A stretch of 45,425 bases of DNA from Thermomicrobiales bacterium (GTDB lineage: Bacteria; Chloroflexota; Chloroflexia; Thermomicrobiales; UBA6265): positions 1 through 45,425 of the forward strand of contig JASGGF010000001.1 of the NCBI GenBank assembly GCA_047605145.1. Reading direction: 5' to 3'. Both the position numbers and the translations under genes were made by a program. Under the pieces are notes generated by a model that had not been told where the DNA came from, ran no database searches, and worked only from the letters and a program-made list of their open reading frames with translations. Positions 33,052-39,521 of this stretch are shown here, piece after piece (within the stretch, counting starts at the first letter, position 1; the number at the start of each line of letters is the position of its first letter).

Positions 33052-33927
33052 CTAGTCCTCGCTGCCGGGATCGGCAACGGGGGTGGCCGCATTGTCCAGC
33101 TTGTATCGGGCTTTCGGTCCGCTCCCCTTGCCCTCACCTGCCGCGCGCTTGTTCCGCCGGTAGCCCGTTTCGGTGGCGCGAGGGAGCGCGTAGTAGAAGG
33201 TATATTCCCGCCGGTGGGGAGGGCGCGCCTGAAACACCACCGGGTACCCAGCGGTGCGCAAGAGCCGCATGAGTGACTCTTCGGTGTGGCGAAACGACGT
33301 TTCGTTCCCCCACGAGGCGGTGGCAACCTCATCGCGCTCTTCACGCGTGTCACCATGCTCCTTGATCAGCATGCCTTCGTACTCGTCGACCGTGTCGACG
33401 ATTGCGGAGGCAATGCGCGTGTCGATCAGGAGCGGTGTGCCCGCGCACTTGCGGAGGAGCGCCAGCTGATCGGGTACTTCGAGGTGGTGGAGCAACCCCA
33501 GAATGCAGATCAGATCGAAATCGCCGCGGCCAATCGCATAGTCGCGAATGTCTGATTGCACGAAGGTGACGGCATCGAGGAGCCGGGCCAGTTCCGGTTG
33601 CGTGGCGGCGTCGTACTCCGGCCACCGGACCTTCCGGGCGTCAACGGCAGTGACCTGCCACCCGAGGCTGGCCGCGCTCATCGAGAAATTGCCCTTGCCG
33701 GCGCCCAGATCGAGGAGCCTGCCGGGCTGCATCGGCGCCAGCACTGCCTCGAAAATGCGGCCCTTGTTCAGATTGCCGTCTGGCTCCGGCAGGCCGTGGG
33801 TCTTGACGACTTCTTGCTGATTAACGCCCTTGCGGCGGCGGACCTGCCGGCTCTCTGCGCCGGACTCCACGTCCTGCTCGCTGACGTCGTCGGCCTTCTG
33901 TTTCTTGCGTGTACGCGGCGCCTCCAA
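33052..33927 (-). CDS. class I SAM-dependent methyltransferase with basic N- and C-terminal tails
   Basis: SAM motif I LLDLGAGKGNFS, an acidic residue after strand 2 (VTAVDA) and motif ICILGLLHHL. Lys/Arg-rich N-terminus (RTRKKQK...RRRK) and C-terminus. Confidence 0.75.
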   Translation of the reverse strand: MEAPRTRKKQKADDVSEQDVESGAESRQVRRRKGVNQQEVVKTHGLPEPDGNLNKGRIFEAVLAPMQPGRLLDLGAGKGNFSMSAASLGWQVTAVDARKVRWPEYDAATQPELARLLDAVTFVQSDIRDYAIGRGDFDLICILGLLHHLEVPDQLALLRKCAGTPLLIDTRIASAIVDTVDEYEGMLIKEHGDTREERDEVATASWGNETSFRHTEESLMRLLRTAGYPVVFQARPPHRREYTFYYALPRATETGYRRNKRAAGEGKGSGPKARYKLDNAATPVADPGSED

Positions 33928-34057
33928 GATCGGGATCCTCCATTGTCGTAACTGTTCCGTTTGCGGTCACGGTACTACCATTCCGCGCCGGCCGTGCAGC
34001 CCCCGCAGTTGTGCCGTCGCTGGCTTCCGGCTATCACGTGAAAAGGTATTGCGCTTC

Positions 34058-35407
34058 ATGCCGTCGTCATCGCAACGCCTGTCGCTGCTCAAGCATCCTG
34101 ACCAACTCGTCCCCATGCTCGCGGCGGAGCTCTCCGCCGCTCGTGGCGAGCCGATCACCTTGCACCAGTGCGTGATCGATTACGTCAGGCAGTCGGCCAC
34201 GCGCACCAGTGTGCAATACACCCTCGATCTCGAGGATGCCAGAGGCGCGCGCGGACAGCAGGTGATCACGGCGGTCGGCTATGGCGACGACCGCACGGAG
34301 CAGCAATGGGAGCGCATCCGGGACGACATCTGGGACGCTACCGCTCCGGTTGGGCAATTCCAGCTGCCGGGCGCGAGCTATTCTGCGACGCTCGATGTGA
34401 TCCTGCAGGTGTTCCCCTTTGATTTTCGTTTGCCGGGACTGCGCCAATTGGTGTTGGGTAACCCCACCGCCCTCGCGCGAATCGGCGCCAATCTGGGCGC
34501 AGCGCAGGTGACATCGTGGGAGGCAGAGGTCGCGCGCTACCGTCCAGACATGCGGGCCATGGCTCGGGTTCGCGCCGGTGGGCTGGATGCGCTCGGGCAG
34601 CCGGTTGCACGCACAGTGTATGCAAAAACCTACCGCGACAATGACGAGGGCCAGCGCGCGTTTGACCTCCTGACCGCGTTTGCGCGCTGGTCTGCCGATC
34701 CGGGGGTGTTCAGCGTGCCGGAACCACTGGCCTATCACCCCGATCTGCAAACGCTGGTGCTGGCGGAAGCGCCGGGCACGCGGCTGCTGGACATCGTGCG
34801 GCAGCACGATCCCGGAGAGGCGGCAGCGGCCGTACGTCGTGCTGCGCGGGCGGTGGCCGCCATGCACCGGGCTCCGGTCAGGGGCCCATTGCTGACCGAG
34901 ATGGCCCATGACAAGGACGCCCAGTTTTCGGATGTTGCCGCCAACCTGATGTCGAGTTACCCCCAGATGGCGGCGGAGATTGCGGATGTCGCCGGTGAGA
35001 TCACGGCAGTGTTCGAGGAGCCGGAACTGAGCCCCACGCACTACGACCTGAAGCAGGGGCACATTCTGATCGATGACGGCGCAACCACCATTCTGGACTT
35101 TGACAAGATGGCGCTGGGCGATCCACTGATCGACGTTGCCAATGTGGTCGCTACGCTGGGCGCCGAGCGCGAGGGGAGCGCGAAGCGCGCGGCGCGCCGG
35201 GGTAATCTGGCCGGGGTGTTCGTCGAGGAGTACTTCGCCGCCGTTCCGTCCGAATGGGCGCCGCTGTTCCCGGCGCATCTGGCGCGGGCCACCCTACTGG
35301 AGGCCGGCACGACGGGACGCAGCCAGCGGGGCCGCAAGAGTACGTCTCGCCCCGAGGAGCGGCTGGAGTTTGCGCTCGGTCGCGCGCGCGAGGCGCTTGC
35401 CTCCTGA
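34058..35407 (+). CDS. aminoglycoside-phosphotransferase-fold (APH/choline-kinase-like) kinase with about 170-aa N-terminal extension
   Basis: Catalytic loop HYDLKQGHILID and metal-binding ILDFD. ATG 34058 lies in frame within track ORF 33830..35407. Confidence 0.7.
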   Translation: MPSSSQRLSLLKHPDQLVPMLAAELSAARGEPITLHQCVIDYVRQSATRTSVQYTLDLEDARGARGQQVITAVGYGDDRTEQQWERIRDDIWDATAPVGQFQLPGASYSATLDVILQVFPFDFRLPGLRQLVLGNPTALARIGANLGAAQVTSWEAEVARYRPDMRAMARVRAGGLDALGQPVARTVYAKTYRDNDEGQRAFDLLTAFARWSADPGVFSVPEPLAYHPDLQTLVLAEAPGTRLLDIVRQHDPGEAAAAVRRAARAVAAMHRAPVRGPLLTEMAHDKDAQFSDVAANLMSSYPQMAAEIADVAGEITAVFEEPELSPTHYDLKQGHILIDDGATTILDFDKMALGDPLIDVANVVATLGAEREGSAKRAARRGNLAGVFVEEYFAAVPSEWAPLFPAHLARATLLEAGTTGRSQRGRKSTSRPEERLEFALGRAREALAS

Positions 35408-35419
35408 GTGAAGCCGGGA

Positions 35420-35995
35420 TCAGAGGCGCTGCGCAACGAGGCGGCTGACCTCGCGCAGTGCGTCGAACACGCCCTCGCCGGTCACCGCTGATGTGGCGTA
35501 GGAGGGGTACTTGCTAACGCCCAGCATATCGGCCATGCCGCCGACGTCCAGCGCACTGGGCAGGTCCGACTTGTTGCCCTGCAGCACGAACGCGATCTCG
35601 CCGAGCGACCTGCCGGACACCGTCAGCAACGACTGCAACTCCGTGAGCGAGGTCAGATTCTCGGCCTGCCGGAGCGGGTCTGTGTCTGCGACGAAGATCA
35701 CGCCATCGGCGCCGTGCAGGACGGCGGCACGGGGCCCGGCGGAGCGCGGTTGACCCGGCACCGTGTAGAGATGCCAGTGCAGCCGCATACCGAACCGTTC
35801 GCCGAAGTCGATGGGGAGCGAATCGGAAAAGATGGTGCGGGCCGATTCCGAGGCGATGCTGCGCAGCGAGCCGTGCGACTCGGCGGGGATGCCGGCAGCG
35901 ATGGCCCGGAGCGTGGTGGTCTTGCCACTCAATTCCGGGCCAAAGTAGACGACCTTGGCGTGGATCTCCCGCGCTTCCAGATCGATCAAGGCCAT
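35420..35995 (-). CDS. mglA: MglA-type Ras-like small GTPase
   Basis: Colinear with Myxococcus MglA: REIHAKVVYFGPELSGKTTTL (P-loop), LYTVPGQ (G3), GNKSD (G4). The start lies 5 nt after the hflX stop. Confidence 0.85.
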   Translation of the reverse strand: MALIDLEAREIHAKVVYFGPELSGKTTTLRAIAAGIPAESHGSLRSIASESARTIFSDSLPIDFGERFGMRLHWHLYTVPGQPRSAGPRAAVLHGADGVIFVADTDPLRQAENLTSLTELQSLLTVSGRSLGEIAFVLQGNKSDLPSALDVGGMADMLGVSKYPSYATSAVTGEGVFDALREVSRLVAQRL

Positions 35996-36000
35996 GGTGG

Positions 36001-37311
36001 TCAGACTGCCGCTGACGACGCACGGTCGAGGGCGGCCCGTTTCGCGTCCGGCTGCACAAACGACTCGAAGCGGCCGAGCTCTTCCTGCGGCAGGTAGCCG
36101 CGAACGGTTGAGCCCTCTTCGGTGAAATCGGTCTCCTCCACACGACCTAACCGGTGGAAGAGATCGACCAGATCGGTCCGAGAAAAGGGCGCCTGCAGGA
36201 CCACCGGCACGAACTGCGCGATGTCCTCGAGAGAGCTTTCCACCTGCGCCAGCAGGGCATCGAAGCCGACGCCGGTCTGCGCCGAGATGAGCACCGGGTT
36301 AACCGCAAGCGCCGCCGCGTCACCAAGAGTGGCCAGCACCTCATCGAGCGGCGGCAGGGCGCCATCAACGCCGGTCAGGCGGTCCACCTTGTTCAGCGCC
36401 GTGATGACCGGCTTGTCATCTGCCCCGAGATCCTCCAGCACGCTCATGACGGTTTGCATCTGTTCCGCCGCGTTGGGGTGCGTCACATCGACCACGTGGA
36501 GCAGCACGCTGGCCTCGTTGATTTCTTCCAGCGTGGCCCGGAACGCGGCGATCAGCAACGTCGGCAGGTTGTTGATGAAGCCGACGGTGTCGGTGAACAG
36601 GACATCGCGTCCGCTGGGCAGCGCCCGGCGCCGGGTGGTGGGGTCCAGCGTGGCGAAGAGCTTGTCTTCCGCCATGACGTTCGCGCCGGTCAGCGCGTTC
36701 AGGAGCGTGCTCTTGCCGGCGTTGGTGTACCCGACGAGGGCCACGACGGGAATCGGCGCGCCCCGGCGGCGGTCCCGGTAGAGCTGGCGGTGGGTGTGGA
36801 CCTCCGCCAGTTCGCGCTTTATGTGGACGATACGCTTCCCGAGCTCCCGGCGGTCGCTTTCCAGCTGCGTCTCGCCGGGTCCGCGCAAGCCGACGCCGCC
36901 GACACCCTGCCGGGAAAGGTGGGTCCACATACCGGTCAGCCGGGGCAGCCGGTATTCCAGCTGCGCCAGTTCAACCTGCAGGCGGCCCTCGTGCGTGGAA
37001 GCGCGACGGGCGAAGACATCAAGGATGAGCGCCGTGCGGTCGATGACCATCACGTCAAGGGCTTTTTCCAGATTGCGTTGTTGCGACGGGGTCAGGTCGC
37101 CGTCGATCATAACGAGATCGTATCCGGCGTCGTCCTTTTGCTCCTTGATCTCCTGCAGCTTGCCGGAGCCGACGTATGTGCCGGCCAGCGGGTGCGGCAG
37201 GCGCTGGGTGACCGAGCCGACGACTTCGACATCGACGGTCTCGGCGAGGCGCGCCAGTTCTTCCAGCGAGTCGGTGGCAGCCCAGTCCTGCCCGGGCCGT
37301 TCCACCGCCAC
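36001..37311 (-). CDS. hflX: GTPase HflX
   Basis: GVGGVGLRGPGETQLESDRR HflX signature. G1 GYTNAGKST, G3 DTVGF, G4 NKVD. The true start is probably upstream of GTG 37311 (see findings). Confidence 0.9.
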   Translation of the reverse strand: MAVERPGQDWAATDSLEELARLAETVDVEVVGSVTQRLPHPLAGTYVGSGKLQEIKEQKDDAGYDLVMIDGDLTPSQQRNLEKALDVMVIDRTALILDVFARRASTHEGRLQVELAQLEYRLPRLTGMWTHLSRQGVGGVGLRGPGETQLESDRRELGKRIVHIKRELAEVHTHRQLYRDRRRGAPIPVVALVGYTNAGKSTLLNALTGANVMAEDKLFATLDPTTRRRALPSGRDVLFTDTVGFINNLPTLLIAAFRATLEEINEASVLLHVVDVTHPNAAEQMQTVMSVLEDLGADDKPVITALNKVDRLTGVDGALPPLDEVLATLGDAAALAVNPVLISAQTGVGFDALLAQVESSLEDIAQFVPVVLQAPFSRTDLVDLFHRLGRVEETDFTEEGSTVRGYLPQEELGRFESFVQPDAKRAALDRASSAAV

Positions 37312-37486
37312 CAGCAGCGCGTGTTCAACGGGATCGCGATCGATGAGCTTTGGTGGGCGTGGTATGGCGGGGCTCCTTTACTGTGGGCCGGGGTTGTGCT
37401 GCTTGCAAAGTGTAAGCGCCGGCCTGTCAACGCGCGCAGATTCCGGGCCAGTCAGACACGCGTTATCTGGCCCGGTGGCGACGGGT

Positions 37487-38926
37487 TCATGACGCGTCAG
37501 CCTGCAATTCGTGAGATCGCACGCCGAGTGTGGCGCGCGCGGCCTCCGTGCGGCGCACGCGGTCTTCCAGCCACTCCTGATCCTGCGCCACCTGCTGCGA
37601 TTCGATGTCCAGCAGTTCGCGGACGGCCTTCGGCGCCGGGCCACCCACGGCGGATCGTTTTTCGACGAAACGGCGCGGGGCGAGAAAGGCGCCGAGCCGC
37701 TCGATTTCGACACCCAGTTCCTGCCCGATCACGAGCAAGGCGGCGCTATCGATGAGGCCGGGAGTGATGCCGCTGGCCTCCAGTTCCTCCGAGGCTGCGC
37801 GCTCGGCGACGAGCGCGGCAATCTCCTGCGCGGCGGATGCCGGCAGCCCCTCCTCGTCGATGAGCAGCGCGGCGAGATCGCCAGCGGTCATCAGGTAGCG
37901 GCCGGCCTGACGCGCTAGCCACGCGCGGTTGAAATCGACCGGGCCGCTGAGCAGCATGGTGGCCGTCTGGCAGACGCGCGCTGCGTCCCCGAGGGCCCGC
38001 GCGGCGCTGAGGGCCGGCGCATCGCCCGCATCCCCGCGCGGGCCGAACGGGATGGCGGCGGCGGCGCGCTCCGTCAGGAGCGCCTGCTGCGCGACCGCGC
38101 GGGCATCGGTGAGGCAGCGTTCCAACACCTGCGGCGCGCGGTAATGGGGGAGGGCGCGTTCGGCTGGCGAGAGCAGTGCGTCGTCGATGTGCAGCGACTG
38201 CGGCTCCTGCCGCCGCAGCGCCAGCATCTCGCCGAGCAGGCGCTCCAGTGGCAGCACCACGGCGGCGGCGGCCTGACTGGCGGCAACGAACTGATCCGTC
38301 GCGGACACGGCGTCGATGGTGCTCTCAGCGGGCGCCTCGGCGCCGAGCAGGGTCGCGACGGCGTCTCGGTCCACGACGACTCGCCCGCCGCCCATGGCCC
38401 CTGCGCCCAGCGCAACGGGATCGAGATCAACGAGCGCAAGCTGCAGCCGGGCAGTGGCGCGGCGCAACGGCGCGATGGAGGCGGTCAGGGCGTGGGCCAG
38501 ATTGGTGGGCTGGAGCGGCGAGGAGCCAGCGTAGATGGGCAGCAGAGTGAAGACGTGCGCCCCGGCCAGCTCGATCAGCGTCAGCCGGGCGAGCAGGGCC
38601 GCTTCCAGCAGCTGGGTCGCGTGCTGGCGCAGGAGCAGGTGCAGCGCAGTGGCTGCCAGATCGGACGACTCGCGGCCCTGCCGGCTCAGGGCGGCGCAGG
38701 CGGCGGGCGCAACGGCCTCCACCCGCTGCTCGAACGCGACAGCCAGACCGTGCGAGCTTTCGACTGGCGGCGGCGTGCCCTGACTGGTTGCTTCAACCGC
38801 GCCCAGCAGCGACGCCGCGCAGTGGCTCTCCAACGCGCCGCCGTCATGCAGGGTGATGACGTGCGCCTGCAGGGCGGCGCCAATCGCCAGCCACAGGTCT
38901 TGCCGCCAGCCGCTGGCGCCACTCAT
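37487..38926 (-). CDS. argininosuccinate lyase-like protein (fumarate-lyase superfamily) with degenerate catalytic motifs
   Basis: Colinear with ArgH by eye, especially the C-terminal FVEKRSAVGGPAPKAVRELL. ATG 38926 has GAGGA 9 nt upstream. Track ORF 37487..39202 was trimmed. Confidence 0.75.
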   Translation of the reverse strand: MSGASGWRQDLWLAIGAALQAHVITLHDGGALESHCAASLLGAVEATSQGTPPPVESSHGLAVAFEQRVEAVAPAACAALSRQGRESSDLAATALHLLLRQHATQLLEAALLARLTLIELAGAHVFTLLPIYAGSSPLQPTNLAHALTASIAPLRRATARLQLALVDLDPVALGAGAMGGGRVVVDRDAVATLLGAEAPAESTIDAVSATDQFVAASQAAAAVVLPLERLLGEMLALRRQEPQSLHIDDALLSPAERALPHYRAPQVLERCLTDARAVAQQALLTERAAAAIPFGPRGDAGDAPALSAARALGDAARVCQTATMLLSGPVDFNRAWLARQAGRYLMTAGDLAALLIDEEGLPASAAQEIAALVAERAASEELEASGITPGLIDSAALLVIGQELGVEIERLGAFLAPRRFVEKRSAVGGPAPKAVRELLDIESQQVAQDQEWLEDRVRRTEAARATLGVRSHELQADAS

Positions 38927-39040
38927 GTGCAGAGGTCCTCTCAAGTTCAGCGTCTGCCCACCGCAGGGCATGGGCGAGTCTAGCGCTATCACGGGCGCAG
39001 CCGGGACGCGTGCACCAGAATGGCACAACCAGCGGCGAGG

Positions 39041-39140: not shown

Positions 39141-39521
39141 ATGGACGGATTGGTAGGCATCCACTCGATGCTCGGCGGCATCGTGGTCGTGATGATGATC
39201 ATCGTGGCGATTCTGGGTGCGATTTACGCAGCGGGCGGCAGCGACAACCTGCTGCGGCCGGCCTCGATGCTGGCGGCGGGGCTGTACCTGTTGCAACTGG
39301 TGCTGGGCATCGTGCTGATCAGCGGCGGCCTCAAGAACTCGACGGGCCACTACCTCATTGCGCTGCTCATCCTCGTGCCGGTGGCAATTCAGCACTCGGC
39401 GGCGAAGCGTATGCAGGCGCGGACCCGTGGATACACCGTGATGATCTGCGCGCTGGCGGCGGCGTTTCTCTCGGTCGTGGCATACATGTCCGGGGCGATG
39501 GGCCTGCTGGGCCCGGCGTAA
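39141..39521 (+). CDS. small integral membrane protein (about 4 TM), function unknown
   Basis: 126 aa made almost entirely of hydrophobic helices. GGGAGGGA lies upstream of the ATG. Its stop overlaps the next gene's ATG (TAATG). Confidence 0.55.
   Translation: MDGLVGIHSMLGGIVVVMMIIVAILGAIYAAGGSDNLLRPASMLAAGLYLLQLVLGIVLISGGLKNSTGHYLIALLILVPVAIQHSAAKRMQARTRGYTVMICALAAAFLSVVAYMSGAMGLLGPA

Follow-up and report, generated by a model that had tools for sequence, protein, structure and literature searches.

Why does a bacterium maintain a gene for an argininosuccinate lyase (ASL) homolog from which the catalytic residues of such lyases have disappeared? This question is raised by a locus of a soil Thermomicrobiales bacterium (assembly GCA_047605145.1, contig JASGGF010000001.1), of which the first 45,425 nucleotides were analysed and are hereafter called the window. 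The gene in question, termed ArgHL herein, is encoded on the minus strand and immediately precedes hflX; a first, sequence-only reading of the window had considered its product a candidate pseudoenzyme. According to the present analysis, ArgHL is best regarded, with a probability of about 0.6, as a protein of the aspartase/fumarase (ArgH) superfamily that has become catalytically inactive, is maintained by selection and acts without catalysis, possibly together with HflX. Since catalytic loss and purifying selection coincide in a lineage-specific family located beside hflX, ArgHL is most likely a non-enzymatic binding protein. That it is dead for any lyase-type chemistry and at the same time maintained appears very probable, whereas a real functional link to HflX and ribosome rescue is proposed here only tentatively.

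Loss of the active site and maintenance of the gene

For motif comparison, ArgHL was aligned with ASL of T. thermophilus (2e9f) using HMMER and with the canonical ArgH of its own genome using MAFFT. Residue numbers of ASL given below are those of duck delta-2 crystallin/human ASL, assigned on the basis of the motifs and the literature. In these alignments, the four motif substitutions quoted in the sequence-only reading proved to be real and correctly placed. YTHLQRAQP is replaced by YAGSSPLQP at residues 132-140 of ArgHL, so that Ala and Gly stand at the positions of Thr161 and His162, GSSIMPQKKNP by AERALPHYRAP at residues 255-265, with the catalytic Ser, Lys and Asn gone, and YNKDLQEDK by PRGDAGD at residues 296-302. 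The signatures that mark a protein as ArgH, namely the loop GSSxMPxKxN with its Ser, Lys289 and Asn291, YTHxQxAQP with Thr161-His162 and RSRND with Ser114-Arg115-Asn116, hence read AERALPHYRAP, YAGSSPLQP and RESSD in ArgHL. Altogether, Ser283, Ser284, Lys289, Asn291, Thr161, His162, Ser114, Arg115, Asn116, Tyr323 and Lys325 are replaced, and the sole classical active-site residue left is Glu269 (equal to ASL Glu296), besides which two Pro of the loop are kept. Additionally, the N-terminal ~25 residues are missing, the WGGRF segment included. The structural segments that had been described as retained are indeed present.

These losses are not peculiar to the window protein, as is evident from a residue census in which 91 intact relatives were compared with 95 proteins of the fully degenerate clade (D clade, see below) that contains ArgHL. 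Ser283 is Ser in all 91 intact relatives and in none of the 95 D-clade proteins, where Asp (34), Glu (33) and others are found instead. Likewise, Lys289 (89/91) and His162 (84/91) are each absent from all 95, being replaced by Leu, Phe, His or Trp, among others, in the first case and mostly by Gly (49) or Asp (21) in the second. Asn291, conserved in 89 of the 91 intact proteins, is found in almost none of the 95 and is not among the seven commonest residues at its position (Pro, Ala, Leu, Ile and others); Thr161 (87/91) has similarly given way to Ala, Ser, Ile, Val and others in almost all of them. The equivalents of Arg115 and Asn116 vary across the degenerate clade. Both proper alignment and clade census thus confirm that the catalytic Ser, His and Lys have been lost. 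In their place, Pro occurs at the Tyr323 position in 89 of the 95 D-clade proteins and at the Ser284 position in 47. As the new clade-wide residues of the pocket are Pro and Gly, the former mobile loop looks rigidified rather than re-tooled. Moreover, the substituted pocket residues vary even between genera, which is unlike a new catalytic site established in the old pocket.

Stop-free orthologs of ArgHL with 45-71% identity are present in 14 of the 15 genomes of the genus, the fifteenth (75% complete) giving its canonical argH only, and most other genera of the family carry stop-free orthologs as well (32-38% identity). Related degenerate copies, recognised by their hflX context, occur in a second family of the order, and about 40 further orthologs were obtained from a collection of 5.8 billion proteins. 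Orthologs that share these losses and the position beside hflX, the occurrence of which had been proposed as a check, are hence found across both genus and family and also in another family of the order. The total of about 100 orthologs is intact except for one or two frameshifted copies; of 77 loci selected by motif, 66 are full length and the remainder are mostly clipped by contig ends. Between members of the genus, the ratio of nonsynonymous to synonymous substitution rates (dN/dS), determined by the method of Nei and Gojobori (NG86), ranges from 0.08 to 0.21 for the whole gene and from 0.04 to 0.15 for the C-terminal domain (residues 331-440). The least saturated pair (dS 0.39) gives an omega of 0.17 overall and 0.06 in the C-terminal domain. 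With whole-gene values far below 1 and intact orthologs, the earlier impression that the gene is maintained and not decaying holds. Motif loss and purifying selection, which together define a pseudoenzyme operationally, are both found for ArgHL.

Two copies could nevertheless be taken to indicate a decaying pseudogene with a frame that is still open. The ortholog of genome G038 (L040 on G038:C5, at ~8996), a partly degenerate, hflX-linked copy of the Q type described below, carries a single frameshift between residues 134 and 135 as judged against its 87%-identical intact relative P0100, in a genome of 9 contigs, and in the locus L109 of a long-read metagenome-assembled genome (MAG) the ArgHL copy looks split. 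The frameshift reflects either misassembly or a true inactivation at this locus, and the split copy, too, may stem from misassembly or from a true loss confined to its genome. Against these stand intact orthologs by the dozen, independent of one another and 30-70% identical, the low dN/dS, an invariant family motif and a conserved promoter and Shine-Dalgarno sequence, by which the pseudogene explanation is already refuted for practical purposes.

Fold, descent and the C-terminal domain

ArgHL gives a weak match to Pfam Lyase_1 (40 bits) and scores 115.6 bits with the argH model TIGR00838, below the equivalog cut-off of 279.5. The latter match extends over residues 21-443, in keeping with the colinearity with ArgH that had been read from the sequence. 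In a phmmer search of the PDB, ASLs and delta-crystallins were matched, among them T. thermophilus ASL (2e9f, E 1.6e-22) and, as second-best match, a 508-aa chain labelled 'ASL' (6g3d, E 3e-21). The AlphaFold2 model of ArgHL, built with 27 family sequences, has a confidence (predicted local distance difference test, pLDDT) of 85 and a predicted template modelling (TM) score of 0.80, and displays the three-domain, mostly helical aspartase/fumarase fold. Its best Foldseek match is 6g3d again, the EDDS lyase of Chelativorans (E 2e-20, TM 0.73), followed by ASLs and delta-crystallins, with TM scores of 0.69-0.74 to the ASLs. Homology to ArgH is hence borne out by fold and profile, whereas the nearest relatives belong to a branch of ~500-aa EDDS-lyase-like proteins and not to ArgH proper.

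The canonical argH, for which the remainder of the genome was to be checked, is found stop-free elsewhere in the assembly, on a different contig (G000:C49, 568 bits); ArgHL is not the arginine enzyme. A degenerate copy might still act on an active lyase, either canonical ArgH or an EDDS-lyase-like enzyme, by forming mixed tetramers as a dominant-negative or regulatory subunit. Active sites of the superfamily are built from three subunits, and the known heterotetramers of delta-1 and delta-2 crystallin as well as the intragenic complementation of ASL speak for such an arrangement, as does the intact EDDS-lyase-like paralog that some genomes with a degenerate copy also contain. The window genome, however, lacks an intact EDDS-lyase-like paralog; apart from canonical ArgH (~25% identity), it encodes just two superfamily members, both of them more distant. 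Furthermore, conservation of the helical core, from which the tetramer is built, is lower than that of the C-terminal domain, and a subunit of this kind is therefore considered very improbable.

Among known systems, the EDDS lyase of Chelativorans sp. BNC1 (PDB 6g3d-6g3i), together with related uncharacterised ~500-aa 'argininosuccinate lyase' paralogs, comes closest. ArgHL shares with them the three-domain architecture, an insertion in the C-terminal domain and a long C-terminal helix, and it is placed within their branch. In contrast to ArgHL, EDDS-lyase-like enzymes retain RSRND, (Y)TH-Q-AQP and SSIMPQK(R/K)NP and carry ALDP--FV--R where ArgHL has LAPRRF-E-(K/R)R; the N-terminal ~25 residues lacking in ArgHL add to these differences. 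With ArgH (TIGR00838, EC 4.3.2.1), ArgHL has the fold and the segments LR--LR, LAH, PLG-GA, IDR, LG, DAV--D and R---GG-P in common, but all catalytic and substrate-binding signature residues of ArgH are replaced. Judged by its sequence, ArgHL is thus a member of the ArgH/EDDS-lyase branch by descent that on every catalytic ground falls outside ArgH, EDDS lyase and the ASL homolog XcbC.

Avian delta-1 crystallin is an inactive ASL paralog used as a lens protein. It is ~90% identical to active delta-2 crystallin/ASL, and its inactivity stems from changes in N-terminal loops, the catalytic residues being retained. Delta-1 crystallin (PDB 1i0a, 1hy0) is among the fold and sequence matches of ArgHL, and in both cases the ASL fold appears to be kept for a non-enzymatic purpose. 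Conceptually, delta-1 crystallin is the nearest parallel, but the analogy drawn in the sequence-only reading is a loose one. It does not extend to the mode of inactivation, as the ArgHL clade has lost the catalytic residues outright; likewise, delta-1 crystallin is a recent, near-identical copy of an active enzyme, whereas the ArgHL clade is old, diverse and bacterial.

How the degenerate family is related to active enzymes became apparent from a profile search of 1.84 billion representative proteins. The top ~45 clusters (above ~270 bits) have degenerate catalytic motifs and the C-terminal motif (Y)LAPRRF(I/L/V)E(R/K)R…GGPAP. In clusters of lower score, by contrast, RSRND, (Y)TH-Q-AQP and SSIMPQK(R/K)NP are intact and the C-terminal motif reads ALDP--FV--R---GGPAP; six partly degenerate Q-type clusters are scattered among them. 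At 50% identity, the degenerate family thus comprises at least 45 clusters. A scan of 185,579 species genomes for the hallmark motif yielded the 77 loci mentioned above, nearly all of which are labelled Thermomicrobiales, Chloroflexia or 'Sphaerobacteraceae' MAGs, and the degenerate clade is practically confined to Thermomicrobiales.

In a maximum-likelihood tree (LG+C20, outgroup canonical ArgH) with Shimodaira-Hasegawa-like approximate likelihood-ratio test (SH-aLRT) support, a clade of 75 rows (SH-aLRT 99) branches from inside a grade of EDDS-lyase-like enzymes that are intact. Three groups can be distinguished in it. In the T group (P0083, L101 and L104), Ser283, Lys289, Asn291, Thr161, His162 and Glu296 are still present; LAPRRFVERR has already been acquired and hflX lies 184-221 nt downstream. 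The Q group, named for its loop …QPQRRDP…, has lost the Ser and exchanged Lys for Arg and Asn for Asp, and is hflX-linked, too (L040, L042). The fully degenerate D clade (65 rows, support 100) contains the window ArgHL. Because T, Q and D groups are all linked to hflX, this linkage predates the loss of catalysis.

What selection preserves best is the C-terminal domain. Its hallmark, GRE-G-E-E…(Y)LAPRRF-E-R…GGPAP, is the best-conserved segment of ArgHL, and identity between the window protein and family-level orthologs amounts to 0.53 in the C-terminal domain but drops to 0.31 for the core and to 0.24 for the N-terminal part. Invariant or nearly so are D393, G401, E403, E407, E409, P417, R418, R419, E422, R424, G428 and P430. 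In ASL, the C-terminal domain lies near the Ser loop and moves with it. Residues 411-428 of the ArgHL model have a pLDDT below 50, which would fit an element that becomes ordered only in an oligomer or complex, at most a hint.

Linkage to hflX and the gene neighbourhood

As had been noted from the sequence, ArgHL is followed on the same strand by hflX and a gene for an MglA-like GTPase. The whole gene block is kept across the genus, and at family and order level just ArgHL-hflX(-mglA) remains. Of the 77 motif-selected loci, 61 are informative in this respect, having at least 1.8 kb of downstream sequence. Among these, 35 have hflX downstream in the orientation of ArgHL, 23 of them at no more than 500 nt; two basal subgroups are included, one with its catalytic residues still in place. 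The arrangement is found in two GTDB families, in which none of the other neighbours has stayed the same. At 12 of the 35 linked loci, ArgHL and hflX are separated by 0.6-4.2 kb of unrelated genes, encoding a luciferase-like oxidoreductase, a binding protein (SBP), or a WYL regulator plus a prenyltransferase-like protein.

Taken together with the tree, a course of events can be proposed which would start from the gene of a ~500-aa EDDS-lyase-like enzyme. In an ancestor of the Thermomicrobiales, this lyase gene would have come to lie directly 5' of hflX and gained the Arg-rich C-terminal motif LAPRRF-E-RR. Among its descendants, the Thr-His pair and Lys289/Asn291 would then have disappeared along with the N-terminal arm and the base of the Ser loop, and the former catalytic loop would have turned Pro-rich. 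Selection would now keep the helical scaffold and, to an even greater degree, the C-terminal 'lid' domain, through which ArgHL, as an oligomeric scaffold or adaptor, would most likely bind a partner. The sole candidate partner emerging from the data is HflX, or the pair of HflX and MglA-like GTPase, or their ribosomal substrate. In its most specific form, this proposal describes ArgHL as a tetrameric lyase-fold adaptor dedicated to HflX (or to HflX plus the orphan MglA-like GTPase) that recruits, sequesters or regulates HflX in stress, contacts it via the invariant GRE-G-E-E/APRRF-E-R surface and evolved from an hflX-linked enzyme of which intermediates are extant. So narrow a role is speculative and, on present evidence, unlikely.

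Several observations weigh against the favoured explanation, and in particular against HflX as partner. The spacer between ArgHL and hflX, about 120 nt in length, contains a TACACT/TACAAT box that is aligned in 11 loci of the genus and followed by a Shine-Dalgarno sequence, which suggests that hflX has a promoter of its own, distinct from that of ArgHL. As each gene seems to have its own promoter, co-transcription is not required. A derived clade (23 rows, support 100) has moved away from hflX; here, ArgHL stands alone and divergent from a Bmp/PnrA-type ABC importer, and the genomes concerned contain no second, hflX-linked copy, their extra matches being intact EDDS-lyase-like enzymes or canonical ArgH. 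No obvious features of HflX track the presence of ArgHL; HflX is single-copy everywhere and diverges smoothly, with no break between genomes that have the family and genomes that lack it. Also, no public sequencing runs are listed that could serve as expression evidence. ArgHL is acidic (median isoelectric point 5.1, net charge -16), which speaks against general RNA binding; a protein partner is hence favoured. Finally, the invariant acid/base cluster of the C-terminal domain (D393/E403/E407/E409/R418/R419/E422/R424) could equally constitute a new site for a ligand or a metal, or form salt bridges inside the protein, instead of an interface.

Some of these points would be accounted for if ArgHL were a pseudoenzyme without any HflX-related function, for example a structural or stress protein or one with an unrelated partner, and its adjacency to hflX a historical leftover. 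The separate conserved promoter-like boxes, the 23-member clade that left hflX and is still intact and conserved, and the unrelated genes inserted at 12 of the 35 linked loci all agree with this possibility. The adjacency of ArgHL and hflX, however, outlives every other adjacency of the region and is found in three subgroups (T, Q and D) over two GTDB families, so that a mere leftover is regarded as rather unlikely.

The charged cluster would also be in line with a neofunctionalised enzyme or small-molecule sensor, the catalytic or ligand residues of which have migrated, e.g. to the C-terminal domain. The aspartase/fumarase superfamily is known for its recruitment to new chemistry, and XcbC, the 2-phosphosulfolactate-eliminating ASL homolog of bacterial coenzyme-M synthesis, is a case in point. 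Like ArgHL, XcbC (NF052535) is related to ASL but no longer serves arginine synthesis, and it ranks second among the NCBIfam matches of ArgHL (97.6 bits); the basal hflX-linked subgroup is, by its residues, probably still an enzyme. Yet the XcbC score is far under the cut-off of 575, and the active XcbC enzyme is encoded in a biosynthetic cluster. No such cluster surrounds ArgHL, which has hflX, the MglA-like gene and genes for a small membrane protein and a homocysteine methyltransferase as neighbours, and no metabolic genes are consistently adjacent. Moreover, the old pocket conserves just Pro, Gly, one acidic residue and Gln139, and the positions of base, acid and carboxylate binder vary even inside the genus. 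A new enzyme or sensor is thus held to be improbable, and a binding protein without catalysis remains the favoured explanation.

Table 1 Features of the ArgHL locus in the window
Feature	Position	Strand	Evidence
ArgHL, predicted ArgH/EDDS-lyase-like pseudoenzyme gene	37487..38926	minus	Open reading frame, 479 codons + TGA
Shine-Dalgarno sequence GAGAGGA of ArgHL	38936..38942	minus	Sequence; 9 nt 5' of ATG
-10-like hexamer TAGACT, putative own promoter of ArgHL	38977..38982	minus	Block kept among genus sequences
Degenerated region 1, GRESSDL for GRSRNDQ, residues 84-90	38657..38677	minus	Alignments, census
Degenerated region 2, IYAGSSPLQP for GYTHLQRAQP, residues 131-140	38507..38536	minus	Alignments, census
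Former mobile Ser loop SPAERALPHYRAPQVLE, residues 253-269	38120..38170	minus	Alignments, census
Degenerated region 4, FGPRGDAGDAP, residues 294-304	38015..38047	minus	Census
Family hallmark EASGITP..ID.AAL..G.ELGVEIE....FLAPRRFVEKR...GGPAP..VR, residues 383-436	37619..37780	minus	Conservation profile
TACACT in ArgHL-hflX spacer, candidate separate hflX promoter (-10-like)	37409..37414	minus	11 genus loci
hflX, ribosome-rescue GTPase	36001..37365	minus	TIGR03156 454 bits; reading frame (start 37365/37311)
MglA-like small GTPase gene	35420..35995	minus	Pfam Arf 27.6 bits; 5 nt after hflX
APH-fold kinase with long N-terminal extension	33830..35407	plus	Pfam APH 55 bits
Class-I methyltransferase with basic tails	33052..33927	minus	

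The position that had been given for ArgHL is correct, with the gene itself being read on the minus strand from the ATG at 38926-38924 to the TGA at 37489-37487 (product P0002, 479 aa; Table 1). Reading this segment on the plus strand was rejected due to many stops, the frame being open on the minus strand only. A longer frame of 571 aa from the ATG at 39202 was dismissed, too, because orthologs also begin at the ATG of the 479-aa frame; the extension is antisense of the plus-strand gene for the small membrane protein. The good Shine-Dalgarno sequence and ATG described earlier were both recovered. Further upstream, 50-60 nt 5' of the start codon, an extended -10 block TGCTAGACT is aligned in 11 of 13 genus sequences and reads CGCTAGACT in the window, whose G+C content is 65-70% throughout. 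This box and that of the spacer were derived from comparative alignment and not from a consensus scan. The latter requires a -35 element and therefore missed the TACACT of the spacer; it found no sigma-70 consensus on the minus strand, nor was a terminator found between ArgHL and hflX. An Rfam scan of 33-41 kb gave no credible match in the spacers. Beginning 12 nt past the ArgHL stop, there is a perfect hairpin of 9 bp (CCGGGCCAG…CTGGCCCGG, 37443-37475, minus strand) with a 15-nt loop; it has no T-run and is not kept in the genus alignment. In the corresponding spacer of a long-read MAG (L052, G007:C8), a long, almost pure G run looks like an assembly artefact.

The start of hflX deserves separate mention. 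Where its conserved N-terminus begins (37363-37378, minus strand), there is no ATG, GTG or TTG, and a strong AAGGAG is followed after 7-8 nt by an ATA in the hflX frame. All 11 alignable orthologs of the genus have ATT, ATA or ATC at this position, with Pro/Thr-Arg next. The start is hence probably the ATA at 37365, after AAGGAG at 37378-37373, and the alignment points to a conserved AUH start of the infC kind, which would make translation of hflX sensitive to initiation factor 3 (IF3). The MglA-like gene is located downstream of hflX in relatives as well. A search of the whole genome (an 88%-complete assembly) for a Roadblock/LC7 domain of MglB type gave none, and the MglA-like GTPase therefore appears to be without its usual partner, a GTPase-activating protein.

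The APH-fold kinase gene is convergent with hflX-mglA, and the methyltransferase gene is divergent from it. A minus-strand frame of 403 aa ('orf403', 35278->34067) considered as an operon member was rejected as a shadow of this plus-strand kinase gene. On the 5' side of ArgHL, genes for the small membrane protein and a homocysteine S-methyltransferase are divergently oriented. In other genomes, a minus-strand pair recurs downstream of ArgHL, which encodes a prenyltransferase/SQHop-cyclase-like repeat protein and a PafC-type regulator of helix-turn-helix-WYL-WCX architecture (L080 7423-9769, L072 7405-9282, L069 7506-8429). This pair occurs in the clade no longer linked to hflX and, in other genera, inserted between ArgHL and hflX; in L080, it is followed by a Ski2/DSHCT-type helicase. 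Two apparent fusions of 857-860 aa from the representative library (P0071 and P0082), examined as Rosetta-stone evidence, were discarded as a gene-calling artefact, because their N-terminal 395 aa have no Pfam hit and are antisense of the upstream Bmp/PnrA binding-protein gene.

Meaning for lyase evolution, HflX and annotation

To our knowledge, bacterial pseudoenzymes are rarely documented, with the avian lens crystallin as textbook case. In the literature searched, neither a bacterial pseudoenzyme of the aspartase/fumarase superfamily nor such a family is described, and on ASL in connection with HflX or on ASL pseudoenzymes nothing relevant was found beyond delta-crystallin. The relatives of ArgHL form a natural series which leads from an intact enzyme via an hflX-linked enzyme with the new C-terminal motif and a partly degenerate form (QPQRRDP) to the fully degenerate one. 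Hence, the route from enzyme to non-enzyme becomes directly testable.

HflX is a widely conserved GTPase of ribosome rescue and antibiotic tolerance, the regulation of which is poorly understood. If the link of ArgHL to HflX is true, an unexpected accessory factor for HflX would be gained. At present, genes of this family are labelled 'argininosuccinate lyase' or 'lyase family protein', and such labels mislead the metabolic reconstruction of Thermomicrobiales MAGs.

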